Virus record (IMG/VR): IMGVR_UViG_2061766007_000442
Origin: an uncultured virus (IMG/VR IMGVR_UViG_2061766007_000442)
Taxonomy: Duplodnaviria > Heunggongvirae > Uroviricota > Caudoviricetes
Strand: one strand, 5' to 3'
Length of the DNA stretch: 20,000 bases
Part shown: piece by piece, positions 1,513 to 20,000 of the stretch
How positions within the stretch are numbered: the first letter of the stretch is position 1
How the letters are laid out: the number at the start of each line of letters is the position of its first letter
Position numbers and translations under genes: made by a program
Notes under the pieces: model-generated
Told to the model about the DNA's origin: nothing
What the model saw: the letters and a program-made list of their open reading frames with translations, nothing else
The model's database searches: none

Positions 1513-2122
1513 ACCAATATTAATAGCTATATGCGGCAAGTCCGCCGCAGGTAAGGATAGTCTTGCTAAAGAATTAACAAGAGTATTACTTTACCATAAT
1601 ATTCGTTGTAAGCGATTGATAAGTGATACAACACGTCCTCGACGTATTAATGAAGTGCAAGATATAGATTATCATTTTATTACAGAATATGAATTTAAAC
1701 ATAACATTGCTTTAGAGCGATATATTGAGTTTAGTTATTTTCATCGTTGGTATTATGGTATTAATAAATTTCAGATTCATCCTGACGTTATTAATGTTGG
1801 AGTATTTAATCCAATAGGTATTAGACAATTAGATGAACTACAAAATCTATACAATATTATAGTTGTATATATTGATATGGATTTTAAAGAAAGGATGCGG
1901 CGGTCGATAGCGAGAGAAAATAAATTTAGAATTGAATTTTTAAGACGAGCATTTGCCGACCATCAAGATTTTAATAATATTGAATCTTATATTCAAGATA
2001 GTTTTAGACATAATATTATCTTTAAAAATAGAAAAAATATAGTATTAATGGCTTACTCGATTTATTTTGATATTAGAAATAAACTTGATATAACTAGTGT
2101 GAGCATGGGCAAAAAAGTATAA
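1505..2122 (+). CDS. gmk: Guanylate kinase-like nucleotide kinase
   Basis: ATG at 1505 overlaps the dnaE stop and follows GGAGAGGAAG. P-loop GKSAAGKD, TTRPRRxNExxDxDYHF and WYYG motifs. The ORF-track start at 1373 is unlikely. Confidence 0.85.
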   Translation: MNKPILIAICGKSAAGKDSLAKELTRVLLYHNIRCKRLISDTTRPRRINEVQDIDYHFITEYEFKHNIALERYIEFSYFHRWYYGINKFQIHPDVINVGVFNPIGIRQLDELQNLYNIIVVYIDMDFKERMRRSIARENKFRIEFLRRAFADHQDFNNIESYIQDSFRHNIIFKNRKNIVLMAYSIYFDIRNKLDITSVSMGKKV

Positions 2123-2177
2123 TCTGTATTTTGTGGTTTTTAAATATTATGTTATACAAAAAATACAAAATATAGTG
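2122..2177 (+). promoter_or_regulatory. Candidate tandem NrdR boxes upstream of nrdD
   Basis: TACAAAATATAGTG (2164-2177) matches 12/14 of the CACWAYATMTWGTG core. A weaker ATCTGTATTTTGTG (2122-2135, 10/14) lies 42 bp upstream. Both directly precede an RNR gene. Confidence 0.5.
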
Positions 2178-2185
2178 GGGTGATT

Positions 2186-4339: not shown

Positions 4340-4345
4340 GTTATT

Positions 4346-4852
4346 ATGAGATATAATGCAATACAAAGATGTGAATATATTAATGGTAATGATATAGGTG
4401 TATCATTATATATCCAAGGATGCTCTATTAGGTGCGAAGGATGTTTTAATCCTGAAACTTGGGATTTTGAGGGCGGACAAGAATTTGATAGTGCAGCTTA
4501 TGCAAAATTAAATGAATTACTTAATAAACCTTATATTACTAGATTTTCTATTCTTGGCGGAGAACCATTAGAAAGATGCAATTGGGATGATTTAAATAAA
4601 CTGTTATGTCAGTTGCAAGAGTCTAAACCAGGACTAAAAATTTGGCTCTATACGGGCTATACCTACGAATTTCTAATGACTCTTATAGACGAATGGCGCA
4701 TCAAATGGCCTAAGTTTAATGATGCTTTTCTTTTAGAATCAATTTTAGAAAAAGTAGATGTATTAGTCGCTGGGCCTTTCATCCAAGAGGAACAAGATAA
4801 ATCATTACCTTTTAGGGGCAGCCGCAATCAAAAAATTATTGAACTAAATTAA
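4346..4852 (+). CDS. nrdG: Anaerobic RNR activating enzyme (radical SAM)
   Basis: GCSIRCEGCFNPETWDF (CxxxCxxC), ILGGEPL, IWLYTGY and FRGSRNQ motifs; immediately follows nrdD. Confidence 0.96.
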   Translation: MRYNAIQRCEYINGNDIGVSLYIQGCSIRCEGCFNPETWDFEGGQEFDSAAYAKLNELLNKPYITRFSILGGEPLERCNWDDLNKLLCQLQESKPGLKIWLYTGYTYEFLMTLIDEWRIKWPKFNDAFLLESILEKVDVLVAGPFIQEEQDKSLPFRGSRNQKIIELN

Positions 4853-4855
4853 AAT

Positions 4856-4889
4856 AACGGGTAGCTATATGCTACCCGTTTTATTATTT
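4856..4889 (+). terminator. Rho-independent terminator after nrdG
   Basis: 10-bp stem AACGGGTAGC / GCTACCCGTT with loop TATAT, followed by T-rich TTATTATTT. Confidence 0.85.
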
Positions 4890-4916
4890 GACAAAATATT
4901 TTTTTCTTGTTATAAT
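4888..4916 (+). promoter_or_regulatory. Consensus sigma70/sigmaA promoter with extended -10
   Basis: TTGACA (4888-4893), 17-bp spacer, TGn-TATAAT (4911-4916), about 30 nt before ATG 4947. Confidence 0.9.
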
Positions 4917-4946
4917 TATATTAATGAGGAAATAGAAAGGTTTTTT

Positions 4947-5327
4947 ATGTCGAATAAAGTTGTAGTTGGTTCATTATATGAAATGAATCAGCAATTATTT
5001 AAACAAATGGCACTACCTAGCAAGAAAAAAATAGATTTAGATTTTGCTAATATAGGTGCGTGATTCTCTTCGCATAAAGATATAAAATATTATATGCTTT
5101 TATGTAAAGAACGCTCAGATTATACAGTTTTTCATTTTAATGATTTTAATTTTAATAAAGCCGTAGATGAATTAAAAGCTACATTAGAAGAACGTGGCGA
5201 TATTATGGGTATTGATTATATTCATGGCGACGATGTATTCCAATGCTGGGTGCGGGAGCGCGGTGAAGACCCTGATGTATATATGTTTATGTTATTTGAT
5301 GCCAATTGAATGGTAGTTGAAATATAA
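4947..5327 (+). CDS. Phage hypothetical protein, 126 aa (TGA=Trp)
   Basis: ORF-track pieces 4869-5063 and 5094-5309 are in one frame, joined by TGA at 5061 and 5307 (IGA-W-FSSHKDIKYYMLLC...FDAN-W-MVVEI). SD GAAAGG; TAA overlaps the next ATG (TAATG). Confidence 0.8.
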
Positions 5328-5815
5328 TGATAGAACAAAACAAACAATATGGTCATTTAATTGTTTTGTATCCAGAAGATATTAATGAAGGTTCACATCC
5401 TCGTAAAATGTGAACCTGTAAATGTGCTTGCGGAAATGTTATATTGTTAACAGAGTTTGAAATTTTAAATGAACATTGTCAAAGAGCATGTCTTGATAGT
5501 CGTGGAGAAATATGCGCCGCCGATTTCTTTGATGAATTAAATATAGAGTATCAAGCCATGAAACGCTTTGATGATTTTGAATATGCTTTTGATTTTTACC
5601 TGCCCGCATACAATATTGCTATAGAATGTGATGGCGCTCAACATTTTAGAACTAAAAATAGTGAATGAATGTCACAATTTAAATTGCAAGAAATGCGGGA
5701 TAGGGACGATGCTAAGACAAAATATTGTAAAGATCATGGTATTTTGTTATACAGAATTTCATTTTGAGATCATAGTAAATTTGAAGAATTAAGGGAGCGA
5801 TTTAGTTGAAATTAG
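5327..5815 (+). CDS. Zn-ribbon + Vsr/DUF559-like PD-(D/E)XK endonuclease (homing-endonuclease-like), 162 aa (TGA=Trp)
   Basis: YGHLIV...W-TCKCACGN, FDFYLPAYNIAIECDGAQH and RDDAKTKYCKDHGILLYRISF-W. In-frame TGA at 5411, 5666, 5765 and 5807. Ends TAG. Confidence 0.75.
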
Positions 5816-6084
5816 TAGTTTGAGCTTATCCTTTAACAGCTATTAATATACAACTGGTAAATAGTTTTGACCAACCAGTTGATGATGTTCCAATAGAAGA
5901 ACAATCTGTATGGATGGATGATGTAATCCCCACTATTAAAAAGATGATTGACTTGCGGGACGTCGATGAAGTGTGCGTAATAGGACCGGCACAGTTTACA
6001 GAGCGTATTAAAGAAAAAATAGAAATGAATTTTCCAAATCTAGATGTATTTTTAGGAGACACAAATGTTAAAATTTCTAATTAA
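5806..6084 (+). CDS. Hypothetical protein, 92 aa (TTG start, TGA=Trp); missing from the ORF track
   Basis: SD AAGGGAG (5791-5797), TTG start, MKLVV-W-AYPLTAINIQ...VKISN-TAA. One TGA at 5821. Fills the gap between neighbours with short overlaps. Confidence 0.65.
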
Positions 6085-6340
6085 ATCTACAAATGAGGTT
6101 CGTGTTGCAACTAAGGATGAAGCTGACGAACTCCATAAGGAACTAGAAAAAGAAGCGCAGGATAATGGTTACACTCTTGCGGCCTGGTCTGAAATGCACA
6201 AAGATAGAAAAGCCCAAGGTGAAATTGTTGAAGAGTGGATGATTTGTAAATGGACTTTTGTATTTAATGATGCCAAAAATCCTGTAGATGCTTATAATAA
6301 GATTACTTATGATTTTTATAAAGTTGGAGAGCAATTTTAA
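6065..6340 (+). CDS. Phage hypothetical protein, 91 aa
   Basis: SD AGGAG; TAATG coupling to dut; 3 Trp, all TGG. Confidence 0.75.
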   Translation: MLKFLIKSTNEVRVATKDEADELHKELEKEAQDNGYTLAAWSEMHKDRKAQGEIVEEWMICKWTFVFNDAKNPVDAYNKITYDFYKVGEQF

Positions 6341-6888
6341 TGAGTGAAATATTAATGCCTAATGATTTTAATACACCACCTGTAGATTTGTCTATGGGCG
6401 TGCCTTTAGGTGCGGGTGCTCCGCAAATGATTACAGAAGAACAATTAATGGAAATGCTTAATCCCACTTTTGAAATCAGAATTAAGTATCTTGATGGAGC
6501 TACGCCTTTACAAAAAATTGAACAAGGTGATTGGATAGACTTATATACCTATGAAGATGTAGAATTACATGCGGGCGAGCATAGTTATATTAATCTAGGA
6601 GTAGCTATGGAGTTGTCACTAGGGTTTGAAGCAATTGTGGCTCCCCGCAGTTCCACTTTTAAAAAGTGGGGCATTTTACAAGCAAACAGTATTGGTATTA
6701 TAGACCACAGTTATTGCGGCGACGATGATATTTGGAAGTTCTCTGCATATGCAGTAAGAGATACAAGCATCCCCGCAGGTACAAGAATTTGTCAGTTTAG
6801 AATTCAGCAGGTGCAACCCAAGATTAAATTTACTTCTGTTTCTACTCTTGGAAATGCCCAGCGTGGAGGATTTGGTAGTACAGGATAA
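6340..6888 (+). CDS. dut: Trimeric dUTPase with ~40-aa N-terminal extension
   Basis: Motifs DWIDLY, PRSS, GIIDHSYCG, RICQF and RGGFGSTG. Confidence 0.93.
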   Translation: MSEILMPNDFNTPPVDLSMGVPLGAGAPQMITEEQLMEMLNPTFEIRIKYLDGATPLQKIEQGDWIDLYTYEDVELHAGEHSYINLGVAMELSLGFEAIVAPRSSTFKKWGILQANSIGIIDHSYCGDDDIWKFSAYAVRDTSIPAGTRICQFRIQQVQPKIKFTSVSTLGNAQRGGFGSTG

Positions 6889-7654
6889 TGGATTATTTAG
6901 AACATCACATAGTAGATCATTGTAATTTAAAGTGTGCAGGGTGTTCACATTTTAGTTGTTTAGCCGAACCTTGATTTGAAGATATACAGGATTTTACTAG
7001 AGATTTTGATGTATTAGCGCAAAAAACCAATCAAAATGTAGGGTGTATAAGACTTATGGGCGGAGAACCATTATTACATTCTAATTATAAAGAATTTTTA
7101 ATTATTGCTAGACAATTATTTCCATATAGTAATATTCAAATTGTTACAAATGGAATATTATTACCAAAATATCACGATGAATTAGTATCTATATGTAATA
7201 ATAATAATATTCAAATTTGTATTAGTAACTATGGTTTANNNNNNNNNNNNNNNNNNNNNNNNNNNNNNNNNATTTTAAATATAAACGAATAGATGATAAA
7301 AACCATTTATATAATATTTCATTTAATTTACAAGGATGTTTTGATGTTATAGATTCTTTTAATAATTGTGATTTACATATAAATCATTGATATTATTTTC
7401 AATATGGTAGATTTTATCCTTGTTGTATAGCTGCTAATTTACATTATTTTGAACAATATTTTAATATAGAAATGTGTGATTGAGATTTAGAAGAAGTATC
7501 TATATCTATACATAATAATTCTATATTAGAAATAGAACAATTTTTAAATAAATCTATACCATTATGTAAATTTTGTGATACTCGTTCGCGGCCGCATACA
7601 TATAAGCCTTTTTCTGTGACGAAAGGAGATATAAAAGAATGGATATGTCCATAA
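6888..7654 (+). CDS. Radical SAM protein with Cys-rich C-terminal region (TGA=Trp; spans N gap 7239-7271)
   Basis: ATG overlaps the dut stop. HCNLKCAGCSHF (CxxxCxxC), LMGGEPLLH and IVTNG. After the gap (different frame, gap length is an estimate): C..GRFYPCC..PLCKFCD..IKEWICP-TAA. TGA at 6972, 7388 and 7481. Confidence 0.85.
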
Positions 7655-8253
7655 TTGTTCCTTGTCACAATTTAGAATCCTATATTACTCCATTATTAGT
7701 ATCACTAAGATTACAAGATATAGGTAATTATGAGGTAGAAGTAATTTTTGTATGTGATAATTGTAATGATAATACTAAAACCATTATAGAACAATTTAAG
7801 TTTGATTATTTAATAAAACATATAATAGAATGTAATGTTCAATCATGTGGTTTAGCTAGAAATGAAGGTATGAAGATAGCTAAAGGCAAATATATATGAT
7901 TTATTGATGGCGATGATTGAATTATTAATAATCGAGCAATCTTTAAAATTATTAATTTTATGGATGAAACACGATTTAAAGTAATACGTTTTGGATATGA
8001 GTGTCCGCCAACATTTCGATATAAAGGATATTTTTCAATGGTTTGGCAATATGCCTATAGAAAAAATTTTATTAAATATACACCTTTTGTAAAAATGCAA
8101 CCTTCAGAAGATGTAGTATTTCAAAAAAAAGTTGTTAAAAAATTAGGTACTAAAGATATTCCAATGTTAAAAGAAAATTTATATTATTATAATTATATGC
8201 GGCCAGGATCAAATATGTATCAATATAGAAAAACTAGGAAAATAGAGCAATAA
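7639..8253 (+). CDS. Glycosyltransferase family 2 (GT-A), 204 aa (TGA=Trp)
   Basis: SIIVPCHN, ARNEGMKIAKGKYI-W-FIDGDD-W (TGA 7897, 7918), SEDVVF and YYYNYMRPGS. SD AAGGAG. Confidence 0.9.
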
Positions 8254-8745
8254 ATGATATATTTAGCATTAGATCAAGCATTACAAACAACAGGTTGAGC
8301 TATCTTTAATGATGGTCAATTGGTTAATCATGGTCATTTTAGTATTCCCGCTAATAAACCAATAGAACAACGTTTGTTAATGATAATGAAAAAATTATCT
8401 GAACTTGAAAATGAATTTGAATTTGAAAATTTATTTTTTGAGGATATACAGTCCCAACAAAATAAGGAAACATATAAAAAATTAGCATATGTGCAAGCTG
8501 CAATTTTAATTTGATGTTATAATACTGAACATAAATTTACAATTTTATCTCCCAGTCATTGGCGGTCAGTGTTAAAAGATAAGTATAAAATTAGTTTTGG
8601 TAGAGCTCGTGCAGAACAAAAAAAAGCCGCACAAGATTTAGTGCGGCAGCAATTTAATTTTGAAGCTACAGAAGATGAATGTGATGCTATCTGTATAGGA
8701 TTAGCTGGATTAATTGAGAATCAAAAAACCAAATCAGCATTTTAA
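8254..8745 (+). CDS. RuvC-like Holliday junction resolvase, 163 aa (TGA=Trp)
   Basis: YLALDQALQTTG-W-AIF (TGA 8296), FFEDIQ, PSHWR, EQK and EDECDAICIG give the D-E-D-D acidic tetrad. Second TGA at 8512. Ends TAA. Confidence 0.85.
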
Positions 8746-8755
8746 ATTTAGACAT

Positions 8756-8792
8756 AAAAAAATAGCCCCCGTATTAACGGGGGCTTATTTTT
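8756..8792. terminator. Bidirectional Rho-independent terminator between the convergent modules
   Basis: Stem AGCCCCCGT / ACGGGGGCT with loop ATTA, flanked by an A-tract (5') and a T-tract (3'). Confidence 0.9.
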
Positions 8793-8797
8793 ATATC

Positions 8798-9543
8798 TTA
8801 GTATGGTGCCTTTTTCTTNNNNNNNNNNNNNNNNNNNNNNNNNNNNNNNNNNNNNNNNNNNNNNNNNNNNNNNNNNNNNNNNNNNNNNNNNNNNNNNNNN
8901 NNNNNNNNNNNNNNNNNNNNNNNNNNNNNNNNNNNNNNNNNNNNNNNNNNNNNNNNNNNNNNNNNNNNNNNNNNNNNNNNNNNNNNNNNNNNNNNNNNNN
9001 NNNNNNNNNNNNNNNNNNNNNNNNNNNNNNNNNNNNNNNNNNNNNNNNNNNNNNNNNNNNNNNNNNNNNNNNNNNNNNNNNNNNNNNNNNNNNNNNNNNN
9101 NNNNNNNNNNNNNNNNNNNNNNNNNNNNNNNNNNNNNNNNNNNNNNNNNNNNNNNNNNNNNNNNNNNNNNNNNNNNNNNNNNNNNNNNNNNNNNNNNNNN
9201 NNNNNNNNNNNNNNNNNNNNNNNNNNNNNNNNNNNNNNNNNNNNNNNNNNNNNNNNNNNNNNNNNNNNNNNNNNNNNNNNNNNNNNNNNNNNNNNNNNNN
9301 NNNNNNNNNNNNNNNNNNNNNNNNNNNNNNNNNNNNNNNNNNNNNNNNNNNNNNNNNNNNNNNNNNNNNNNNNNNNNNNNNNNNNNNNNNNNNNNNCTTT
9401 CATTTTACGCCATCTGTTGTGCCCTCTAAATAACCTTTACCAGTTTGACCTTGACGGGCATTGGCGCTCATGGTATAGCCGAAGCGACTATCATTACACA
9501 TAGCTTTATGAATTGCGGCAGCAATTTTACCATAATCAGCCAT
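8798..9543 (-). CDS. Endolysin, copy A (N-terminus visible, body hidden in gap 8819-9396, probable end KKKAPY-TAA)
   Basis: MADYGKIAAAIHKAMCNDSRFGYTMSANARQGQTGKGYLEGTTDGVK-W-K is identical in the overlap to the endolysin at 11448-11359. SD AAGGAGAG. Linkage to the 8798 stop is inferred across the gap. Confidence 0.6.
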
Positions 9544-9561
9544 TTACTTCTCTCCTTTTAT

Positions 9562-9834
9562 TTATGATTGAAAATCTGTTAATGCAGCTTGTGTAATTTC
9601 AGAATTATCAGTTGAGGCTGTAATAACCTTTTGTGTGGTAGATGAACTGACATGCGCGCTATCAACGTAAGCCTCAGCAGCCGCATAAATCGCAGCGGAC
9701 AGGACGCCGCATATAATACCAACCATTACAATCTTGCTATCAGATACCGCTAGACCAGAAATACTAGTAGCAATTGAAGCAAGAAAAGCTGCAACTGAAA
9801 TCCAAAATTTACGACTTGTTAATTTACTACTCAC
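9562..9834 (-). CDS. Holin-like membrane protein, 90 aa
   Basis: KLTSRKFW start and two hydrophobic helices; lies directly upstream of the endolysin; GTG start overlaps the upstream gene. Confidence 0.75.
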   Translation of the reverse strand: MSSKLTSRKFWISVAAFLASIATSISGLAVSDSKIVMVGIICGVLSAAIYAAAEAYVDSAHVSSSTTQKVITASTDNSEITQAALTDFQS

Positions 9835-10096
9835 TATCCTCTAACTCCTCTTCTGTCTCCGACATTTCTATATCCTCAACGATTTCGTTGTTATCTTTTG
9901 GACGATATTTTGCTTTACCGATTTTATATAAAGCAAATGTGAGCAATTCACCGCCAAATATTGCCATAAATGCAGTTCAAGCACTATCACTAAATTGTTC
10001 ATATCCATGAATAATATTATATTCAGTTACACCAAAAATAATAAAAGTTGCAACTAATATAAACAATAAAATAATATCGCCTTTATTTATTTGCAT
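9827..10096 (-). CDS. Two-TM lysis-cassette membrane protein with acidic tail, copy A, 89 aa (TGA=Trp)
   Basis: MQINKGDIILLFILVATFIIFGV...SDSA-W-TAFMAIFGGELLTFALYKIG...EEELEDSE-TAG. TGA at 9977-9979. Confidence 0.75.
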
Positions 10097-10099
10097 AAT

Positions 10100-10298
10100 T
10101 TACCCTTCTTGTATAGTTTGTGTAAAAGGTCCTGGATAACCATTTGGAAAATCTAAAGTANNNNNNNNNNNNNNNNNNNNNNNNNNNNNNNAAAGTTTTA
10201 TTTGCATCATAATAAACATTCATTTGTATTTTTGTATTATTTTCTAATAACTCTCCAATATAAATACCATAACCAATAGCGTCTCTACCACTACCTGT
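10100..10298 (-). CDS. 3' fragment of an unidentified gene between gaps (possibly the C-terminus of an alternative tail-fibre gene)
   Basis: TGSGRDAIGYGIYIGELLENNTKIQMNVYYDANKT-[gap]-TLDFPNGYPGPFTQTIQEG-TAA, ending 3 nt before the copy A TM gene. Confidence 0.4.
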
Positions 10299-10308
10299 NN
10301 NNNNNNNN

Positions 10309-11448
10309 GGTAACAGCTTTAACCAAATCACGATATGCGTAATTTACGTCAACATTACCAGAAACACCGGGTACTTTACCCTTACTAGAATATTGTCAAA
10401 TATCTGTATTGACTACTGTAGGTTTAGTTTGCGGCTTACCTGTGTTTGTACCGTACTTAGCAATTCATTTAGTATAACGATTACCAACTACAGATTGTAA
10501 ATTGGCTTTCCATCAACTTTCTGAAGCATAAATACCTGCCCAGAAACCAGCTTTTTCCATAGCATCGCAGAATTTTTTAGCATATTTACCAGCAACTTTT
10601 TCTGTACCAGGTTCTTCACTATCGAAATAAACGGGATAGCTTAATTTGCGACCTCTAAGTAGACGCTTAGCATGAGCAATTTCAGAATTAATTTGTTTAT
10701 CATTCTTAGCATAGCTATATAAATAAACGCCATAAGGAATACCTAAACGCTCACACTCTTTATAGTTGCGCACTCATTGGGCATCATCTTGAGAAGGTAT
10801 ATTATCACCATACCCACAACGAAGAATTGCATGATAACCAGCTTTTTTAACTTGTACCCAGTCAATTTTACCATTATGTTTACTAACATCAATAATTTTA
10901 GCAACAACTTTTGTACCAGCTGTAGAAGTTGTCGTTTTGGTGGGTGTTGTAGTCTTAGCGGGTGTTGTGGTTGTTTTACTATCTAATTTACCATTATAGT
11001 GAATAATATTTTTCCAAGGATAATTGTAGTAACCGTGGACATAGGCTTCACGACCTGTTTGATCACCAACTTTTCCACCATATGCTCCACCTTTTTCATT
11101 AATTGAAAATTCAGAGAGAACATCTGGCTTCTGAGTTTGGCACATTGCAACATGCGCTCCAGCCTTAAGATATAAGTCACCAGGTTCAGCTAAGAAACTC
11201 ATTGGCTTAGCAACAAATAATCCACTTTTAACAAATACCGATTCAATATTACCTGTATAAGTAGCACCATCTAAAGCTTTAGCATATTTTGTGTTAGCTA
11301 AAGCAGCTTTTCATGCGGCAATAACACTACTACTGCAATCATAATCGCCAACTTTAACTTTCCATTTTACGCCATCTGTAGTACCCTCTAGATAACCCTT
11401 ACCAGTTTGACCTTGACGGGCATTGGCGCTCATGGTATAGCCGAAGCG
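10309..11448 (-). CDS. Modular endolysin, copy B: NlpC/P60/CHAP-like Cys peptidase + Thr/Pro linker + GH25 muramidase (TGA=Trp; both ends in gaps)
   Basis: DYDCSSSV..PGDLYL..HVAM peptidase; KTTTTPAKTTTPTKTTT linker; GH25 IIDVSKHNGKIDW, GVYLYSYA, VYFDSEE, W-IAKY, DI-W-QYSSKG and VDVN. Single frame with TGA at 11311, 10774, 10513, 10465 and 10396. Confidence 0.9.
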
Positions 11449-11981
11449 NNNNNNNNNNNNNNNNNNNNNNNNNNNNNNNNNNNNNNNNNNNNNNNNNNNN
11501 NNNNNNNNNNNNNNNNNNNNNNNNNNNNNNNNNNNNNNNNNNNNNNNNNNNNNNNNNNNNNNNNNNNNNNNNNNNNNNNNNNNNNNNNNNNNNNNNNNNN
11601 NNNNNNNNNNNNNNNNNNNNNNNNNNNNNNNNNNNNNNNNNNNNNNNNNNNNNNNNNNNNNNNNNNNNNNNNNNNNNNNNNNNNNNNNNNNNNNNNNNNN
11701 NNNNNNNNNNNNNNNNNNNNNNNNNNNNNNNNNNNNNNNNNNNNNNNNNNNNNNNNNNNNNNNNNNNNNNNNNNNNNNNNNNNNNNNNNNNNNNNNNNNN
11801 NNNNNNNNNNNNNNNNNNNNNNNNNNNNNNNNNNNNNNNNNNNNNNNNNNNNNNNNNNNNNNNNNNNNNNNNNNNNNNNNNNNNNNNNNNNNNNNNNNNN
11901 NNNNNNNNNNNNNNNNNNNNNNNNNNNNNNNNNNNNNNNNNNNNNNNNNNNNNNNNNNNNNNNNNNNNNNNNNNNNNNNNN

Positions 11982-12158
11982 AATTTTATATAAAGCAAAT
12001 GTAAGTAATTCACCACCAAATATTGCCATAAAAGCTGTTCATGCACTATCACTAAATTGTTCGTAGCCGTGAATAATATTATACTCTGTAACACCGAATA
12101 TAATAAAAGTAGCAATTAAAATAAAAAGTAAAATAATATCACCTTTATTAATTTGCAT
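11982..12158 (-). CDS. Two-TM lysis-cassette membrane protein, copy B (3' end in gap; TGA=Trp)
   Basis: 58/59 aa identical to copy A over the visible part; TGA conserved at 12039-12041; SD GAAAGGA. Confidence 0.75.
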
Positions 12159-12186
12159 AAATTTCCTTTCTTGCTTTACTTAGTTA

Positions 12187-14415
12187 TTATATTGATTTGA
12201 CTCAAATAGATGAATGTGGAATTAATAATGTAACTGGTGTATTAGCCTGAATATCTGTAGTCATGCCACCGTAATACTCTATTTTTCCTTTAATATTATA
12301 TAAATTTGTACTATAAATATAATCCATACCTGCTTCTCTAAGATTATTAACGGTATCTGATAATACTAATAAATTATTATTTCATAAATTTTTAGTAGTA
12401 TTAAAAACATAACTATAAGAATTGCCGTTATATAATTTAAGTGTATCTTGTGTATTTCACATTTGATTTGTAATTTGATGATATACTCTAGAGAAATGAT
12501 AAATATTATTACTATTATTATTATATGCTTCCATACTATATGTATATGGTCCTCCATAAGCATCATCTGAATTTAATGTTAATGATAATTCTGCACCCAT
12601 TGCTGGTTGAGAATAAGACGATCCATAAGGAGGTTTAATAGTAAATATACCAAATACACTCAGTATAGAAAAACCTATCATACAAGTACTCTGATTTGGC
12701 AAACTTATGTCGCAAGGAATTGTAAATTGTGTACCAGTAAATTTTTCTTCCAAAGTTAACATATATATATTAGTTAAATTTTCTCAATCTGTTGCTCTGC
12801 TATAGTTATAAAACTCATGCAAAGAAGCAGTAGCTATAATATTACATTCTAATATATTAGTAAAAGGACTTACTTTTCCAGACTTATCAACATTGACATT
12901 AACACTTGCTGTATTCGTAACATTATAATTTCCATTACTTGTAATTGTCATAGTGCCACTAGGTATAACATAATTGGTAGGAATAGGATTAACTATAACA
13001 GTTTCTAAACCATCATAATTACTATCTGCACTAATAGTTTGTGTAATTGTGCTTGGGGTTATTGTTTTAGATTGAAGATTAGGAATCACAGAACCTGAAG
13101 ATGCAGGTTCAACTATAATATTTTGTATAAAAGTATTTGGATCTGTAATTGTAATAACTTGTGTCGTTGTGGAAGGAGTACAAGTTATAGTACATAAATC
13201 TTGATACCCAATAATTGTTGGAATATCATTAATTTGACCTGGACTTATTGTTTCAAAATAACTACGTGCTATTAATTTATCTTGCTCACTATCACCTGAT
13301 TCTGGAAAACTAAAAATAGTCTGAGGATCAGATAATGTTGCTGGTGTTATTGCTGCTAAAGTTATAGAACCAGTTGTTAAACATTTACCTGATACTATTG
13401 TTTGAGCACTAGTAGTAGCAGCAAAAATGCCACCCGCGGCAGTTGGAATTTGAGAAAAAGTAGTTATAGTACCAGATGGAATATACCCTTCTTCGGCAGT
13501 TATTGTTGCTAAAATTTTACCGGTATTACTATTTATTGAAATATCAGGTATAACAGAACCGGTAGGAACATTTATTGTTGCATAGTCTGTTACATCAATA
13601 TTACCACTACTTGTAATTGTCATCGTAGCAGTAGGGCGAACCATATAATTTGTAGGGATAGCATTAACTGTAATAGTTGAAAAACCTCAATATTCTTGAG
13701 GCGCAACAATAGTCTGATTGTCTATTTGAGGTTGTACGATTGTGGTAGTTAATTTATTTTGTATATCAGTATTAGATATAGCTTTAATAGTTACATTTAC
13801 TTTCTCTAATCCATCATAATTCATTGTAGGAACAATTGTTTTTGTTTGTGCTATAAGAGATGGAGTATAAGTAACTGTATGTATTTCTAAATTAGGAGAT
13901 ACATTAACATTTACAGCTGCATAAGTTGTAACATTAATATTATTACCATTATCTGTAATAGACATTGTACCATTAGTTAATTGTGCAGCACTAACAGTTA
14001 CAGAAGAACCTGTTATTGTATTATTTTCAATATATCCTGCGCAATTTGTAACCTTTGGAGTTATTGTAATACTATTATCAATTATTTCTCCTATATTAGC
14101 AACAGGAGTGCCACTTATACCTGTTGGTATTGCTTGCACTGTTACAGATGATAAAGCATCAAAATTAATATCAGGTTCTATTGTTTGTGTTTCAAGAGTC
14201 GGTATAATAGTTTTAGATTGAAATTTTAAATTTTCTGGTAAAACATTAATATCTACATTGGCATATTCTGTAACATTTGTTATTCCATTAGAATCAATTT
14301 CAATAGTACCCGTAGGTACTATATAAGTATATGTTGATTCGCCATCAACTGCGGAGACAGTAATACCTTCAATATTACTATATGTTTGTCCAAAAACATT
14401 AATATCTAAACTCAT
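12187..14415 (-). CDS. Repeat-rich tail fibre / virion accessory protein, 742 aa (TGA=Trp)
   Basis: Three ORF-track pieces are one frame joined by TGA at 13687, 12784, 12457, 12382 and 12202; ends TAA TAA; SD AAGGAG. About four copies of a unit like LQSKTITPST.TQTI.AD.NYDGLE.V.V..IP....P.GTMTITSNG..NVT..A.VNVNV. Confidence 0.75.
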
Positions 14416-14458
14416 TTTGTCTCCTTATTATGAATCTTTAACATATAATTTTATATTT

Positions 14459-16129
14459 TTATAATGCTTTAATAATTTTATTTACTGTTGCATACGGTTG
14501 CATGTTATTATGCGCGTTTCCATTTGCATCCGTGGGATTGCCTGTCGTAGTGGCATTAGCGGTCCCAATTCCATGAGTGTGTCCACCACCTCCACCTGTA
14601 TTCACAACTCTCGTACCAGAAGCAGCATATTTCCCACTCTCTGTCATGAATGCCCAACCGGTTGAGGTTCCTGAACTGTTACGTTCATTTACGCTATGCT
14701 TGTGCGATGGTATTTCGGAAGTGGTTAGCGTATGGCTATCAGTGCTAGTTTTCGATTTCGCATATGTGTGGCTATGGTTCTTTGTAGCAGTTTCTGATGG
14801 GGTAAGAGTATGTGTCTCCGCGCCACCTGTCGAGCCAAGCGTATGGGCAGTTGCATCCGATGCCGTACCGGTACCAGAGCCAATGGCTGTACGCCCGCAT
14901 AAATTAGGTAAATTAAAAGTAGTTGAACCGTCACCATCGCCTCATGGCAAATTATCATTTTCATCTTTTAATATCTCAAATAAATCTGCATAAGTTGTAC
15001 GAGATACTGCGGAACCATCACAAATTAAATATCCTGTTGGTGGAGTAAAACCAGCAAAATCTAATATAGTACCGATAGGTACAAATGAATTGGAAAAACT
15101 ACTGGTTGGATGAAGAGTTCCTAATATATTTCAATCCGTACCATTATATGATCTAGCTAAAGTAGCAGATGTTAATTTAGTTTTATTATCATCCATATGT
15201 ACAGCAAAACTATATGTTACTGATTGTGTTTGTTGACCATATGGAAGTGCTTCTTCTCCATATCAGTTAACTCACATTTGGTCATCAGTATCACTAAAAT
15301 TCATTCTTTTGTCAATATATTCTTTGTTAACTGCATCTGCATCAACGGTTGGAGTTACTACATTATGTATATATGTTCCATTATTCGGACTTTCAATCAC
15401 AACAGAACTGGATGGATTATTAGCTGTAATATTTATTGATGTTGGACTTACACTGATAGTGTTATAAGTATTATTTTGTACATCATTATTATATAAACTA
15501 ATAACTCGTCCACTTTGATCTAATGCAGTTCTATATGCGTAATAATTATTATCATCAAAATAATGTGCATAAGAATATAAACCATCATCATAAAGTAAAT
15601 CATTAGTAGCATAGGTTTGTGGATTAGTAGTTGTAGCTGTTGCACCAATTAAATATATTGTAGATGATGTTGTAGTAGCACCCGCAGTATTTTTTGTATC
15701 TGTATCTGTACCACTAATAGTAATAGTATCTGTTGAAGAATTTGCAGTAACAGTAACACTACCTGTTCCAGTAATAGTTAAAGTATCTTGAACTAAATCT
15801 GCAACTGCGGTTACACCACCTGCACTTACTTTACCAAAAGCATTATAATTAAGACTATTTAAAGCAATAGTAGCTGTGGACATTAGCGAAGCGCCGCTAT
15901 CATTTTGTTTCATTAAATTTAATTGTAAATTTGATCCAGAAACAGATAATACAGGGGTCATTTTTTTTCAATAACCATCACTTCAAAGAATTTTTGTGGT
16001 TTCACCAGCTACAGGAGAAGGAACAAGACCATGTTCTCCGCCAGTAGCAGTTTTAGCACCTACAAAATCTCCATTTAGAATATAGGTATCATCACCATAT
16101 GTAAATTTATCTATAACATGCTCTGCCAT
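14459..16129 (-). CDS. Tail fibre protein with phage tail-collar domain, 556 aa (TGA=Trp)
   Basis: GLVPSPVAGETTKIL-W-SDGY-W; collar PIGTILDFAGFTPPTGYLICDGSAVSRTTYADLF..P-W-GDGDGSTTFNLPNL; HxH motifs; end AHNNMQPYATVNKIIKA. TGA at 15983, 15968, 15272, 15263, 15131 and 14942. Confidence 0.9.
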
Positions 16130-16143
16130 AACCTATATTCTCC

Positions 16144-18118
16144 TTAACTTAATCCATGTGTATGACCATTGTCTGTAATAGTATGAGACTTACCGGTCAC
16201 TACTGTTGTTGTACTAGTATTTTTAATTGGCACTGTTGTCGCGGCAGTTGCTTTAATAGGAACTGTTACATCTGAATTACTTTGAACTGCTGTGACAGTA
16301 AGTGCGGTTCCAAGAGTAGGTGGAGTGTGTACGTGTGAAAAAGCAATATTTAATTGCTTGGTGTCAGTTGTATCCATAGTCATAGTTAAACTAGCACTAC
16401 CACTACCTGCGGCGGTTACATTTGGAATTGAAACTGCAGTAGTTGTAATTTTACTTGCAGTTGTAGTAGATGCTTGAACGCCAGTGACAGATGTTGTTGA
16501 AGATTGAACCCCTGTAATAGTTGTTGTAGTGTGATCTGCGATAGAAATTCCTGTGGTATTAGTGGCTGCTGCGGTTGGTATATTTAAATCAGAACGAGAA
16601 AATATAGTAGTCATAGTACCTTGTTTAGACATTTTCAATGCTTCGGAAACACTATTCCATTGCAAAGTACTATAACCACCATAAGCATAACCCCAGTTTG
16701 TAATATCACTCGCGGTTATGCCTGCCGCGACCGAAGTTGCAAAAATTGGGTCTGTTTCAGTGTATGTAGTTAATACTGTACCTAAATCTACCACACCACT
16801 TGTTGGTGTTTTAGTTGTATTGTTAATCTTAACACTTGTTACCGTACCAATATTGGTAGTGTATCCACTATCATTTGTTAAATGAGAAACTTTAGTAGGA
16901 ACATTAAAATTAGCTGCTCCATTGGTAACAGTAATTTCAGTATGTGCGCCAGCGGTAGTTTTAACTTGTGTAATAGTACCGCCACCTAAACTACCTATAT
17001 CTGCTAAAGTAGCAAATTGACTAGTATCTACACCAGTTCATAATTTAATACCATCACCATCATATCAATAAACGGGATGAATATCATAAAGTTCAATATT
17101 TGTAGCTGAATAAGCCATACCAAGGAAAATATATATTTTTCCATCATTAGTATTTGGTAAAGATTGTACATATCCTTCCATTGTCGCGCTACCATCCGCG
17201 GCAGGCATACATTTTACATATACTGGAGCAGGATATGTTAATGTTAAAGCTGCACCAGTTGTATTAAAACTATATCCAAGGGCAAGAGCATATCTTGACC
17301 AACAAACAGTGGCACCAACATTTGAACCTGCGTTGACGTTGGTTGTGCCACTCATATAAACAATACGTCCAAATGGATCAATAGCATTAGGATTAACAGT
17401 TTTTTTGGAAGTTGCTGNNNNNNNNNNGATACATCCAAATGGATCAATAGCATTAGGATTAACAGTTTTTTTGGAAGTTGCTGAATTATCATAAGTAGTA
17501 TTAGCAGGCACTCATTTAGTATGATCTGCGCTGGTAAAAAGTAAACGATAATAACGCGTACGTGTAATGGTTGGCATTGCTGTTGAATTAGTTCTTAATT
17601 GATAACCAATAGTATTATTATCAGAATTATAACCTCTATAACAAATTCAACAACCACCTTCAACTATATCAGATTCAACATAAGTTAACAACATTGTATA
17701 ATTAATATTAAAAATTGTAGTATCACGAGTAGGTGCAGTTGGTGTTACATCATTACCTGTNNNNNNNNNNCTCAACTATGTCAGATTCAACATAAGTTAA
17801 CAACATTGTATAATTAATATTGAAAATTGTAGTATCACGAGTAGGTGCAGTTGGTGTTACATCATTACCTGTAGCCATATTATTATAAACAGGCTTTGCG
17901 CCAAGACCATTAATATTAATAGTAAATCCTGATGCAGATGTAACAACACCATTACGAAGCATGATAGTTGTTCCGTCTATTAATGTTGTTAGATTTGGTA
18001 TAGTTGCAGTATATGCTGTAGAAGTAGATGTACTATCTACTTCTCCATAAAATATTGCGCTTGCTTGAATATCATGTGGAGTCTCACCGACTTGAATTTG
18101 ATTAATAATATTAGCCAT
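16144..18118 (-). CDS. Tail fibre-like protein (TGA=Trp; crosses two 10-N scaffold joins with duplicated flanks)
   Basis: TININGLGAKPVY, VPTKVSHLTNDSGY, ETDP and terminal GHTH motifs typical of phage fibres. TGA at 17647, 17512, 17065 and 17038. SD AAGGAG. Confidence 0.75.
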
Positions 18119-18128
18119 GCAAAACTCC

Positions 18129-18179
18129 TTATAAATCTCTATTATAGGAGCTTTGTCCTATTTGAAAATTAAAAATCAT
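18129..18179 (-). CDS. Possible 16-aa leader peptide MIFNFQIGQSSYNRDL
   Basis: SD AAGGAG at 18196-18191, ATG 18179; the stop TAA overlaps the SD (TAAGGAG) of the next gene. Confidence 0.3.
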   Translation of the reverse strand: MIFNFQIGQSSYNRDL

Positions 18180-18212
18180 AGTTACATCAGCTCCTTCGAT
18201 ATTTTATATTTA

Positions 18213-18917
18213 CTAATCATAAATGTTTTGAGATATAATAATTTTTTGCTGATCTCAAGTATTTAAACTAGGGTAAGACGGTCTAAATCAAGTAACATTT
18301 TCTAAACAATATTGTAATTGAATATTAAGAACATTGTCATCAATCATTATAAGTCTTAATAGTATTCCCGACGTAGCTGCATATGGTGCATCTCCAAATG
18401 TTATATCAAGATTACTTCTTGATACTGGAGTAAGAATATACACATTATCTTCATTAAATTTTATATTCAAGTAATCGCCATTATATATTGTATTAAACAT
18501 AGTATTATCAGGAGTAGTAAATACATTACTATCAGCATCATGCGCTGTAAATGTATATAAACCTGTCGTATTATCATAAGATTCCATATAAAAAGGACTA
18601 ATAGTTCACATATTTTCATTTACAATAGTTAAACTATTAATAAAATCTTCTAAATAGGTTAATGTTTCAGATGTATTAGTTTTTATTCTGATGGCATCTG
18701 CAATACTTTGCAACTCTTCGCTGGTCGTTCAATATATATTATTAAAATCTTTTGGTCAATTTGCTGGAATATTGTCAGTATGAACGCCAGATAAATGATT
18801 AATAGCACTCACAAAACCATTTGGATAAGTTAGGAGTGCGGAAGTATTACCCTCCGCACGAATAGCATCTGCTAAATATTGTAATTGCGTATCTGTAACT
18901 CAATATTTTACAGTCAT
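18213..18917 (-). CDS. Tail-associated protein with two N-terminal 'ADAIR' repeats, 234 aa (TGA=Trp)
   Basis: Y-W-VTDTQLQYLADAIRAEGNTSALLTYPNGF and Y-W-TTSEELQSIADAIRIKTNTSETLTYLEDF. Six TGA (18900, 18756, 18729, 18606, 18288, 18255) and no TGG. TAATG coupling to the upstream gene; ends TAG TAA. Confidence 0.75.
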
Positions 18918-20000
18918 TAGAAATCACTTCCTTGTGCGGGATTAATAGTATCACCGCCGACCTCAGAAGCAAAGCGTTTATTAGAAACAACTGCAACTGT
19001 TCCCGCAGTACCAGTAAATCCAGTAGCCTTAGAATAACTGCCTGTAACAGTAACTGTGCCAGCTGTACCACTAAATCCAGTAGGCTTAATATAACTACCA
19101 GTAACCGTAATTGTCGCGGCAGTACTAGAGAAAATAGCTTTTAATGTACCAGTAGAAGTAATGGTTTCAGGGGAGCCAGAGAAAGTAACCTTTAATTTAC
19201 CAGTGGCACTTACTGTTGTTGAAGTATGTGTAATACTACCAGAAGGAGTATAACTACCAGTTAAAGTAATATCTGCGTCAGTAGTAGTAATATCTACAGT
19301 ACCAGCAGGAGTAAATGATCCAGTAGAAATAATAGTCGCAGTAGTTCCTGCAAATGTCTTTGTTGTGGGTTGACCAGTAACAACTGTTTGTGCAGCAGTT
19401 GTAACGCCAGTAACNNNNNNNNNNTGTACCAGCAGGAGTAAATGATCCAGTAGAAATAATAGTAGCAGTAGTTCCTGCAAATGTCTTTGTCGTGGGTTGA
19501 CCAGTAACAACTGTTTGTGCAGCAGTTGTAACGCCAGTAACCACAGTTTGTGCGGCAGTTGTAACACCGGTAACAACTGTTTGAGATTTAGTATTAATTG
19601 TATCTACCGCAGTAACTTCATTAACACTATCAGTAGTTGCTCCAGTTAATAATGTACCAGTTGCACTTACATTAGGAACATAAATCGTGCCAGTATTTCC
19701 ACCCGTAGCAACTGTTTGAGCTGCAGTAGTTACACCTGTAACAATAGTAACAGCAGCGGTGGTTACACCAGTAACTACTGTTTGAGTTGCTGTAGTAACG
19801 CCAGTTACTATAGTTTGAGCAGCTGTTGTCACGGCAGTTACCGCAGTTGTAGAATTTAATTGTAATGTAGTACCAGTAACAGTAGCAACAGCAGCTACAG
19901 AACCAGTACTAACAGAAGATACAACATTTTTACTAGCTGTATTAACTGCTGTTACTTTATTAATAGAAACAGTAGAAACACTAGAAACTACATTTTTACT
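18917..20000 (-). CDS. Thr/Val/Gly-rich repetitive fibre/adhesin-like protein, 3' part (5' end outside the window)
   Basis: Frame is open from 20000; 11-aa repeats VTGVTTAAQTV and F(S/T)GTAGTVTVTGSY repeats; frame change only at the 19415-19424 scaffold join; ends TAA. Confidence 0.7.
19490..19835 (-). repeat. Degenerate 33-bp coding tandem repeats (VTGVTTAAQTV)
   Basis: About four units at 19705-19835 and two to three at 19495-19585, differing mainly at third codon positions. Confidence 0.75.

Follow-up and report, generated by a model that had tools for sequence, protein, structure and literature searches.

In-frame TGA codons predicted to encode tryptophan outside a TGA-free replication and nucleotide-synthesis block of a large bovine-gut phage

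Gene content and in-frame TGA codons

The stretch of DNA analysed here (20,000 nt; hereafter, the window) comes from a bovine (cattle rumen) gut community. It was assembled as a scaffold and has eight N runs, beside which lie diverged duplicate pieces. With TGA read as sense, the following genes were delineated.

1-1512, + strand: DnaE-type (PolIII alpha, SPbeta YorL-like) DNA polymerase, C-terminal part; PF14579, phrog_20695/12219; 0 TGA, 7 TGG
1505-2122, + strand: guanylate-kinase-like gene; PF00625, phrog_1815; 0 TGA, 1 TGG
2180-4339, + strand: anaerobic ribonucleotide reductase NrdD; PF13597 (7e-152); 0 TGA, 5 TGG
4346-4852, + strand: NrdG activase, which closes the TGA-free block; PF13353 (5e-37); 0 TGA, 5 TGG
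4869-5327, + strand: hyp152; 2 TGA (5061, 5307); 64-aa and 71-aa pieces under code 11
5327-5815, + strand: HNH/homing endonuclease; phrog_559 (7.6e-25), phrog_9084; 4 TGA (5411, 5666, 5765, 5807), no TGG
5806-6084, + strand: hyp92; 1 TGA (5821)
6065-6340, + strand: hyp91; no TGA, 3 TGG
6340-6888, + strand: dUTPase; PF00692; no TGA, 3 TGG
6888-7654, + strand: radical-SAM gene; PF04055; 3 TGA (6972, 7388, 7481); broken by an N run at 7239-7271
7639-8253, + strand: family-2 glycosyltransferase (GT2); PF00535 (2.6e-22) across both TGA sites (7897, 7918)
8254-8745, + strand: RuvC-like resolvase; PF02075, phrog_827; 2 TGA (8296, 8512)
9562-9834, - strand: holin90, small membrane protein of the lysis cassette, hydrophobic sequence; no TGA
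9827-10096, - strand: TM89, small membrane protein of the lysis cassette, hydrophobic sequence; 1 TGA (9977), no TGG
10291-11433, - strand: endolysin (ELLD + GH25 muramidase); PF01183, PF25309; 5 TGA (11311, 10774, 10513, 10465, 10396), 5 TGG
12187-14415, - strand: tail742, frame read with TGA as sense; 5 TGA, 0 TGG
14459-16129, - strand: fibre556, tail fibre with Collar domain; PF07484, phrog_9116; 6 TGA (15983, 15968, 15272, 15263, 15131, 14942), 1 TGG
16144-18118, - strand: tail fibre; weak phrog_9729 match; 4 TGA (17647, 17512, 17065, 17038)
18213-18917, - strand: hyp234; 6 TGA (18900, 18756, 18729, 18606, 18288, 18255), no TGG
18917-20000, - strand: Thr/Val-rich repeat protein that leaves the window; 10-N gap at 19415-19424; no in-frame TGA in its clean parts

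The polymerase fragment is ~40% identical to SPbeta yorL over 99% of its length, and its stop codon is overlapped by the start ATG of the guanylate-kinase-like gene. Pfam and PHROG searches returned no family match for holin90, TM89, tail742 or hyp234, and a search of viral contigs gave no relative of tail742; position suggests a putative holin role within the lysis cassette for its small membrane proteins. Duplicated flanks at two 10-N gaps split the fibre at 16144-18118 into two listed ORFs, 16144-17775 and 17753-18118. An apparent second endolysin N terminus and a second TM89 were judged to be assembly artefacts and left out of the gene count, since diverged duplicates flank the N runs.

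Between 4869 and 18917, 41 in-frame TGA codons (the first at 5061, the last at 18900) are spread over 12 genes, whose frame 0 contains no internal TAA or TAG, compared to 246 and 364 in the other two frames. All 20 gene ends inside the window are TAA or TAG, and TGA terminates none of them. Four TAATG overlaps (5327, 6340, 6888 and 18917) and one TAAATG abutment (8253/8254) were found. These results bear out the original prediction, which held that at least 12 genes are interrupted by TGA only, that the genes are packed with TAATG-type overlaps and that all end in TAA or TAG; every peptide motif quoted in it is present in the translations. With regard to stop usage more generally, a lack of TGA terminators is weak evidence when taken alone, as a standard-code relative described in the preprint of Borges et al. 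has few as well (4 of 146; bioRxiv 10.1101/2021.08.26.457843).

Coding density, a check proposed along with the prediction, was compared by greedy ORF cover over positions 4861-20000, where the N runs push up the figures for every code: cover was 0.74 under code 11 (28 ORFs, median 98 aa), 0.92 with TGA as sense (19 ORFs, median 190 aa), 0.79 with TAG as sense and 0.885 with TAA as sense, the last without longer genes (30 ORFs, median 126 aa). Standard-code annotation does misread the window, as had been claimed, yielding 28 short fragments in place of ~19 genes, and code 11 would miscall the endolysin, tail fibres, glycosyltransferase and resolvase.

Pfam or PHROG domains span TGA sites in GT2 (residues 4-140), RuvC (5-148), GH25 (181-357), Collar (353-414), Radical_SAM (9-100) and the HNH endonuclease (phrog_559, 30-152), and the second half of the radical-SAM gene is an open frame only if TGA is sense. 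The gaps and duplicated flanks of the scaffold would be in favor of true stops at the TGAs, be it in a decaying prophage or pseudogenes or through sequencing or assembly errors. We give this explanation almost no credence, as TGA alone interrupts the frames, no frameshift occurs away from the N gaps, and the domains run on past the codons. In addition, many relatives carry TGA at the same sites, and the codons are retained in contigs of independent runs. One set of these contigs (X1) spans the six TGAs of fibre556 with 0 differences. The tail742 TGAs at 12784 and 13687 are likewise kept in contigs of an independent run; in X3, the 21 differences over 12540-13802 all fall outside the two TGA codons there.

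The meaning of TGA

Alignment with homologues indicates that TGA stands for tryptophan in the phage of the window. A Codetta-like test was conducted on the TGA sites with at least five aligned residues (15 sites); pooled log-odds over these columns reached +69.1 bits for W, with Y second at -8.8, and all 11 control codons were assigned correctly. Homologues were too few for single-site testing at 24 of the 41 sites, most of which belong to tail genes that evolve fast. Because database proteins in the endolysin columns had perhaps been called under code 4, a codon-only test was added that uses the codons of relatives (12 columns). Here W scored +57.4, Y +2.7 and G -16.6, and the 96 pooled residues included 29 Trp and 7 Gly. 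Trp is therefore enriched opposite TGA, in agreement with the earlier claim that these codons sit where the protein families have Trp or another aromatic residue.

All five endolysin TGA sites lie in W-dominant columns (120 homologues). Solved GH25 and GT2 structures have Trp or an aromatic residue at 4 of 7 TGA sites; all three GH25 alignments have W at endolysin site 323 and two of the three have it at site 346, and for GT2 the residues in the PDB structures are Y/F/Y (site 94) and L/T/A (site 87). The column at fibre556 site 396 holds Y 96, W 24 and F 12 of 146, while some other sites of this gene fall in columns that vary and give no sign of Trp. TGA and TGG replace each other at shared sites: among aligned cells opposite window TGA, 66 of 160 are themselves TGA, and of the other residues W is the most frequent; conversely, subject TGA stands opposite window W 55 times, S twice and G once, and the dUTPase of relatives has TGA opposite W. 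At hyp152 site 65, relatives carry 15 TGA and 8 W, with TGG in the relatives that lack TGA. Three relatives without any TGA (L024, L029 and L030) have TGG, TAT or TTC at 6 of the 10 window TGA sites that they cover.

Glycine, as under code 25 in phages of Absconditabacteria/Gracilibacteria, was weighed as another meaning. Code-25 phages are among those reported in the text of the Borges preprint (10.1101/2021.08.26.457843), Gly codons occur at endolysin site 307 in 3 of 8 relatives, and Gly is found at hyp152 site 147 in 4 of 23 relatives (4 of 12 non-TGA residues with further relatives added). The best-conserved GH25 columns nevertheless hold W, and glycine fared poorly against W both in the codon-only scores and in its single pairing with subject TGA, such that its probability appears negligible.

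The TGA-free block, the host and the decoder

Where TGA was predicted to be reassigned in the phage, the tryptophan meaning held, but the recoding is not genome-wide. The first 4.85 kb, comprising the polymerase, guanylate kinase, NrdD and NrdG, contain no TGA and 18 TGG, versus 37 TGA and 20 TGG in the clean portions of the other genes (Fisher p = 5e-7), and most tryptophans of the tail, lysis and several other genes are written TGA. This pattern is conserved in relatives, where TGA/TGG counts over 31 IMG/VR loci are 0/248 for the polymerase, 61/14 for RuvC, 57/37 for hyp152 and 13/3 for HNH; L024, L029 and L030 lack TGA in the same genes. The split between early and late genes is not clean, because TGA is also found in RuvC, GT2, radical SAM and hyp152, which are not usually called late, because only 16 nt separate the TGA-free block from these genes, which share its strand, and because the TGA-free hyp91 and dUTPase are interleaved among them.

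Relatives of the phage are 125-142 kb in length with ~31% G+C and an SPbeta-type polymerase, and an endolysin 94% identical to that of the window sits on a contig of 127,819 nt. The MAG labels of related contigs conflict (Bacillales, Clostridium, Prevotella and Eubacteriales). Since the endolysin combines GH25 and ELLD, the host should have peptidoglycan. A standard-code host is indirectly suggested by the TGA-free block, by the muramidase and by the relatives that keep the standard code. A phage that merely mirrors a code-4 host (Mycoplasma/Spiroplasma-like or other) would involve no code mismatch and no switch. Such hosts do use TGA for Trp, and a suppressor tRNA is seen neither in the window nor in the closest relative; the lack of TGA stops would also fit. 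However, an AT-rich code-4 genome is expected to use TGA throughout, contrary to the polymerase/RNR block here and to the polymerases of relatives, and Mollicutes have no peptidoglycan for such an endolysin to attack. As relatives with the same genes have no TGA at all and some recoded relatives carry a tRNA(UCA) of their own, we regard a code-4 host as improbable.

We therefore consider it very probable that the window belongs to a large bovine-gut phage in which UGA means tryptophan in most genes, with a replication and nucleotide-synthesis block whose reading the standard code leaves unchanged, and that the recoded codon would serve as a translational gate for late and lytic functions. The host would be a bacterium with a cell wall and the standard code, probably a Firmicute, in which translation of the TGA-free early genes could begin immediately. 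Later in infection, a Trp-charged, UGA-reading tRNA would become available and outcompete release factor 2; only after this step would full-length tail, fibre, endolysin, membrane-protein, homing-endonuclease, RuvC, GT2 and radical-SAM products be made.

The whole 20,000 nt of the window contain no tRNA. Among relatives, 3 of 12 recoded records and none of 3 standard-code ones contain a tRNA(UCA); G001 (90% complete), the nearest of the near-complete relatives, and G003 (95% complete) show none. No RF-1 or TrpRS domain was found in 13 relatives; therefore, host enzymes must serve. UGA might also be read through with no dedicated phage tRNA, by near-cognate tRNA-Trp(CCA) of the host or phage and perhaps with a weakened RF2. 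The two relatives lacking tRNA(UCA) would fit this route, as would the phage tRNA-Trp(CCA) of G003 and G011 and the statement in the Borges preprint that only 35% of code-4 phages have TGA suppressor tRNAs. On the other hand, the anticodon stem of the phage tRNA-Trp(CCA) is an ordinary 5 bp, not the 4-bp form that has been linked to UGA reading (as described in PMC13092985), and at 41 sites in essential virion genes a low efficiency would leave very little full-length protein. The relatives' records may also be incomplete, and we view such readthrough as unlikely.

For the gated translation favored above, a candidate decoder is seen only in the relatives. In the 3 recoded relatives that have it, the tRNA(UCA) is 97 nt long and tRNA-Trp-like, with a long variable arm that copies the Trp CCA anticodon loop. 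We tentatively raise the possibility that this unusual tRNA-Trp derivative (93-100 nt) performs the code change in the lineage and that the phage of the window carries the gene outside the 20 kb. The variable arm, which is conserved and reproduces the anticodon hairpin of normal Trp (CCA), may then supply the host TrpRS with an identity element missing from the UCA anticodon, uncoupling the charged amino acid from the codon read. A literature search found no published description of such a tRNA(UCA) design.

Comparison with known systems

The preprint of Borges et al. reportedly appeared later in Nature Microbiology in 2022. Code 4 of Mycoplasma and Spiroplasma also has TGA as Trp but is used across whole genomes, in cells without a wall, whereas the phage studied here has a TGA-avoiding gene block and a muramidase. 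Bacillus phage SPbeta resembles it in its DnaE-type polymerase YorL and similar genome size but has no nucleotide similarity to the window, and we know of no recoding in SPbeta. According to the published descriptions, crAss-like and Lak phages (TGA- or TAG-recoded) likewise reassign a stop codon in late genes in standard-code hosts (Borges preprint; PMC9523058), but they form another lineage, with Bacteroidetes as the reported hosts. Peters et al. (PMC9523058) present metaproteomic proof for TAG as Gln, not for TGA as Trp.

TGA-recoded gut phages had been named as a known class, and the 'Agate' phages of the Borges preprint are of this kind. As described there, they are TGA-recoded, come from cattle and pig guts, measure ~127 kb and are thought to infect standard-code Firmicutes; their replication genes are standard-code, and three of their genes favor TGA, namely those for a homing endonuclease, for a TM protein of the lysis cassette and for a tail protein encoded upstream of that cassette (bioRxiv 10.1101/2021.08.26.457843). 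The likeness is drawn from this published description, with no terminase in the window, and covers the cattle-gut origin, the size of the relatives, TGA as Trp, standard-code replication genes, close relatives with the standard code and a suppressor tRNA in only some genomes. The counterparts here have TGA/TGG counts of 4/0 (homing endonuclease), 5/0 (tail protein) and 1/0 (TM protein). The window differs in that TGA is also used in RuvC, GT2, radical SAM and hyp152, adjoining the replication block. Little new is added, because that preprint already describes the same pattern for phages of such a size from cattle guts. Overall, the window represents one more well-supported large gut phage whose polymerase and ribonucleotide reductase would be host-readable and whose virion, lysis and homing-endonuclease genes lie behind a recoded stop, and it fits the idea, put forward in the published descriptions, that recoding times late translation.

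Gene layout and in-frame TGA codons of the window

The phage identity of the window was established from Pfam and PHROG scans, which gave the following gene order.

Genes of the window
1-1512, plus strand: DnaE-type polymerase, C-terminal part (Pfam/PHROG)
After the polymerase, plus strand: guanylate-kinase-like gene (Pfam/PHROG)
2180-4339, plus strand: NrdD (Pfam/PHROG)
4346-4852, plus strand: NrdG (Pfam/PHROG)
After NrdG, plus strand, in this order: hyp152 (no assigned function), HNH homing endonuclease, two small ORFs, dUTPase, radical-SAM gene
After the radical-SAM gene, to 8745, plus strand: family-2 glycosyltransferase (GT2), then RuvC-like resolvase (Pfam/PHROG)
Array converging on the plus-strand genes, minus strand: Thr/Val-repeat protein, hyp234 (no assigned function), two tail fibres, one with a Collar domain (fibre556)
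Same converging array, minus strand: 742-aa tail protein (tail742), ELLD+GH25 endolysin, two small membrane proteins

At the protein level, the polymerase is approximately 40% identical to YorL of SPbeta. A nucleotide search of GenBank phages with positions 1-8800 returned no match, and neither did an exact 62-nt search of metagenome_contigs. No relatives of tail742 were found in viral_contigs. The Thr/Val-rich protein (18917-20000, minus strand) carries repeats such as VTGVTTAAQTVVTG, has TGG as its sole tryptophan codon, and matches no family. GC skew, positive over 1-9000, becomes negative from 9000 at precisely the point where both gene arrays converge (8745-8800 region); this turn could mark a replication terminus or merely reflect the strand switch.

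With TGA read as sense, 12 genes from 4869 to 18917 contain 41 in-frame TGA and 14 TGG codons, and internal TAA or TAG codons number 0 in frame 0 and 246 and 364 in the other two frames. All 20 gene ends in the window are TAA or TAG, TAATG overlaps occur at four junctions, and Pfam and PHROG domain matches continue across TGA codons. These counts bear out the original prediction that at least 12 genes are interrupted by TGA alone, with TAA or TAG ends and TAATG-type overlaps. It had also proposed a comparison of coding density, and greedy ORF cover of 4861-20000 was indeed best with TGA as sense, although N runs inflate all of these figures: 0.92 (19 ORFs, median 190 aa) versus 0.74 under code 11 (28 ORFs, median 98 aa). 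Cover was 0.79 with TAG as sense and 0.885 with TAA as sense, the latter with genes no longer (30 ORFs, median 126 aa).

The TGA codons are not errors: relatives repeat TGA at matching positions of shared genes, and run contigs retain TGA at 12784, at 13687 and in fibre556. Specifically, Logan contigs of the probable source run are identical to the window over 14413-16076, a stretch with six fibre556 TGAs. A contig from another study has 21 differences over 12540-13802, all of them outside the two TGA codons (12784 and 13687). A contig of a further run is identical across the codon at 13687, and contigs of an RNA-library run cover parts of the tail genes, which is no proof of transcription. 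Window parts outside run-contig cover are uninformative. The runs holding the stretch are labeled "bovine gut metagenome."

The window is a scaffold interrupted by eight N runs. Its two long gaps (8819-9396 and 11449-11981) are flanked by diverged duplicates that are 87-94% identical (9398-9486 versus 11360-11448, 94%; 9921-10111 versus 11983-12173, 87%), and the 10-N gaps at 10299, 17418, 17761, and 19415 also have duplicated flanks, with short duplicated peptides on either side of three 10-N gaps. Because of these duplicated flanks, a second endolysin N terminus and a second copy of TM89, a small membrane protein, are artifacts, and the ORFs at 16144-17775 and 17753-18118 are one fibre gene; two tail genes in all are split by such gaps. 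The diverged flanks point to a scaffold joined from two strain variants.

Residues and codons opposite TGA

Window TGA codons were translated as X, and the residues and codons standing opposite were tabulated, as the original prediction had proposed. The relatives comprised 31 IMG/VR loci, found via the polymerase, and three MAG contigs, with many genes in common with the window. Their TGA use was counted as codons inside tblastn matches; a first open-frame metric was dropped, as ORFs on both strands overlap and it was therefore nondiscriminating. Across 160 aligned cells from the 31 loci, TGA was the most frequent counterpart of window TGA (66), followed by W (27) and Y (20). Conversely, TGA codons of the relatives stood opposite X 66 times, W 55, F 23, H 15, Y 11, Q 11, S 2, and G 1, and TAG and TAA occurred once and seven times, respectively, inside the matches. 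Three loci (L024, L029, and L030; ~48% polymerase identity, 45-48% G+C) have 0 TGA in matched genes. They cover ten window TGA sites, with TGG at four (hyp152-65 and endolysin-41, -307, and -346), TAT at RuvC-15, TTC at RuvC-87, and other codons at the remaining four.

Among 120 database homologues of the endolysin, some of which may come from genes predicted with code 4, W is the most frequent residue at all five TGA sites, reaching 102/116 at site 323 and 114/116 at site 346. In solved GH25 chains, site 323 is W in all three alignments, and site 346 is W in two and H in the third; site 307 holds F or S, and site 220 holds L. For solved GT2 chains, the residues at site 94 are Y, F, and Y, and those at site 87 are L, T, and A. 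RuvC had no match among PDB sequences. The Collar-domain site of fibre556 has Y 96, W 24, and F 12 in a column of 146, and the other five fibre556 TGA sites lie in variable regions that gave no signal. The HNH search gave only 5 close matches, which are not independent of recoding and did not enter the codon test.

A Codetta-like log-odds sum over 15 columns gave W +69.1 bits and Y -8.8, and the same procedure assigned 11 of 11 control codons correctly (TGG, TAT, TTT, GGA, GGT, TGT, TCA, CAA, TTA, CGT, and AGA). When only the codons of relatives were used, so that translated proteins play no part, 12 columns gave W +57.4, Y +2.7, F -12.9, and G -16.6. Homologues were too few at 24 of the 41 sites (tail742, hyp234, the second fibre, radical SAM, GT2, and part of HNH). 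The TGA finding is real, and its proposed interpretation, reassignment of TGA to tryptophan (code 4), is right.

TGA use is uneven along the window. TGA/TGG counts are 0/18 in the first four genes versus 37/20 in clean parts of the rest (Fisher p = 5e-7), and the boundary is sharp, as NrdG and hyp152 lie 16 nt apart on one strand. In relatives, the corresponding counts are 0/248 for polymerase, 8/101 for NrdD, and 5/54 for NrdG, versus 61/14 for RuvC, 57/37 for hyp152, 13/3 for HNH, and 58/48 for endolysin. This pattern does not divide cleanly into early and late genes: in the window, recoding extends to RuvC, GT2, and radical SAM, and dUTPase and hyp91, of no assigned function, are free of TGA. 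G+C content is 45-48% in the three loci without TGA, ~30-34% in the window and nearly all other related loci, and 38% in one.

tRNA(UCA) and other RNA genes of relatives

Scanned with Rfam, the window yielded neither a tRNA nor a group I intron, and no match exceeded the gathering score. Of 12 relatives' records with TGA-containing genes, 3 have a 97-nt tRNA whose anticodon is UCA.

tRNA(UCA) genes, 97 nt each
L033:1667-1763, record G002
L066:375-471, record G013
L092:530-626, record G011

This tRNA is absent from G001 (90% complete) and G003 (95%), the most complete recoded records after G002, and no UCA anticodon occurs among the 13-15 tRNAs of each of three standard-code relatives. All three copies have a Trp-like acceptor end (A1-U72 and G73) and encode the CCA terminus, and CUUCAAA forms the loop of their normal 5-bp arm. 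Their variable arm is long, with stems that differ among copies; its loop, GUCCAAA, is of the Trp U-CCA-A type and copies a Trp CCA anticodon loop.

An IMG/VR motif scan gave 51 matches; ARAGORN identifies 34 of them as tRNAs with anticodon UCA, placing this two-armed design in at least 34 IMG/VR contigs, all copies lying outside the window. Arm-closing consecutive pairs in 34 unique two-armed tRNAs averaged 3.5 versus 1.05 with shuffled partners, with 28 distinct closing stems and U72-G73 in 32. A second scan that did not require the CCA loop yielded at least 24 long UCA tRNAs among at least 119 matches listed; among these 24, UCCAAA was present in the variable arm of 11 and UCCAA variants in 3, and several of the other ten had, by eye, Sec-type bodies. 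When one two-armed tRNA was split into its 5' and 3' halves, both halves matched genes annotated as tRNA-Trp in GenBank phages (tRNA-Trp label on 7 of 12 matches listed). Full-text searches covering the main texts of papers and preprints returned no published description of the design. BLAST of the G002 copy against E. coli genomes gave no match. None of 13 relative records contained an RF-1 or TrpRS/TyrRS domain, with controls detected in 10 and in 14/14 genomes. A phage tRNA-Trp(CCA) of G003 and G011 was considered as a UGA reader via a 4-bp anticodon stem and rejected, the stem having 5 pairs. Inferring the host from MAG bin labels was likewise rejected because the labels span two phyla.

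Further RNA genes were observed in relatives.

Other RNA genes
L040:1501-1592 (G001) and L033:968-1058 (G002): 91-92-nt tRNAs with a long variable arm, called tRNA-Ile(UAU) by ARAGORN; this body is unusual for an AUA reader
L041:2195-2266 (G003) and L074:893-965 (G011): tRNA-like gene with a tight GCAA-loop hairpin at the anticodon position (ARAGORN anticodon 'ca'; Rfam tRNA score 31 bits)
L036:1847-1926 (G002): 80-nt Rfam tmRNA match (64 bits versus a gathering score of 47), immediately following tRNA-His in the phage tRNA array

Comparison with the Agate phages

Borges et al. (bioRxiv 10.1101/2021.08.26.457843) describe a TGA-recoded "Agate" lineage of ~127 kb from cattle, pig, and tortoise, with standard code in close relatives, and report detectable suppressor tRNAs in only 35% of code-4 genomes. 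For the window phage, the code used by the host, the timing model, and the decoder are inferred. The likeness to Agate phages includes the window TGA/TGG counts of HNH (4/0), tail742 (5/0), and TM89 (1/0), contigs of 125-142 kb among the relatives, and a 94%-identical endolysin on a contig of 127,819 nt. The window, which holds no terminase, matches the published Agate description point by point. Consistent with the original prediction that TGA-recoded gut phages are a known class, the window phage is a further member of this published kind.
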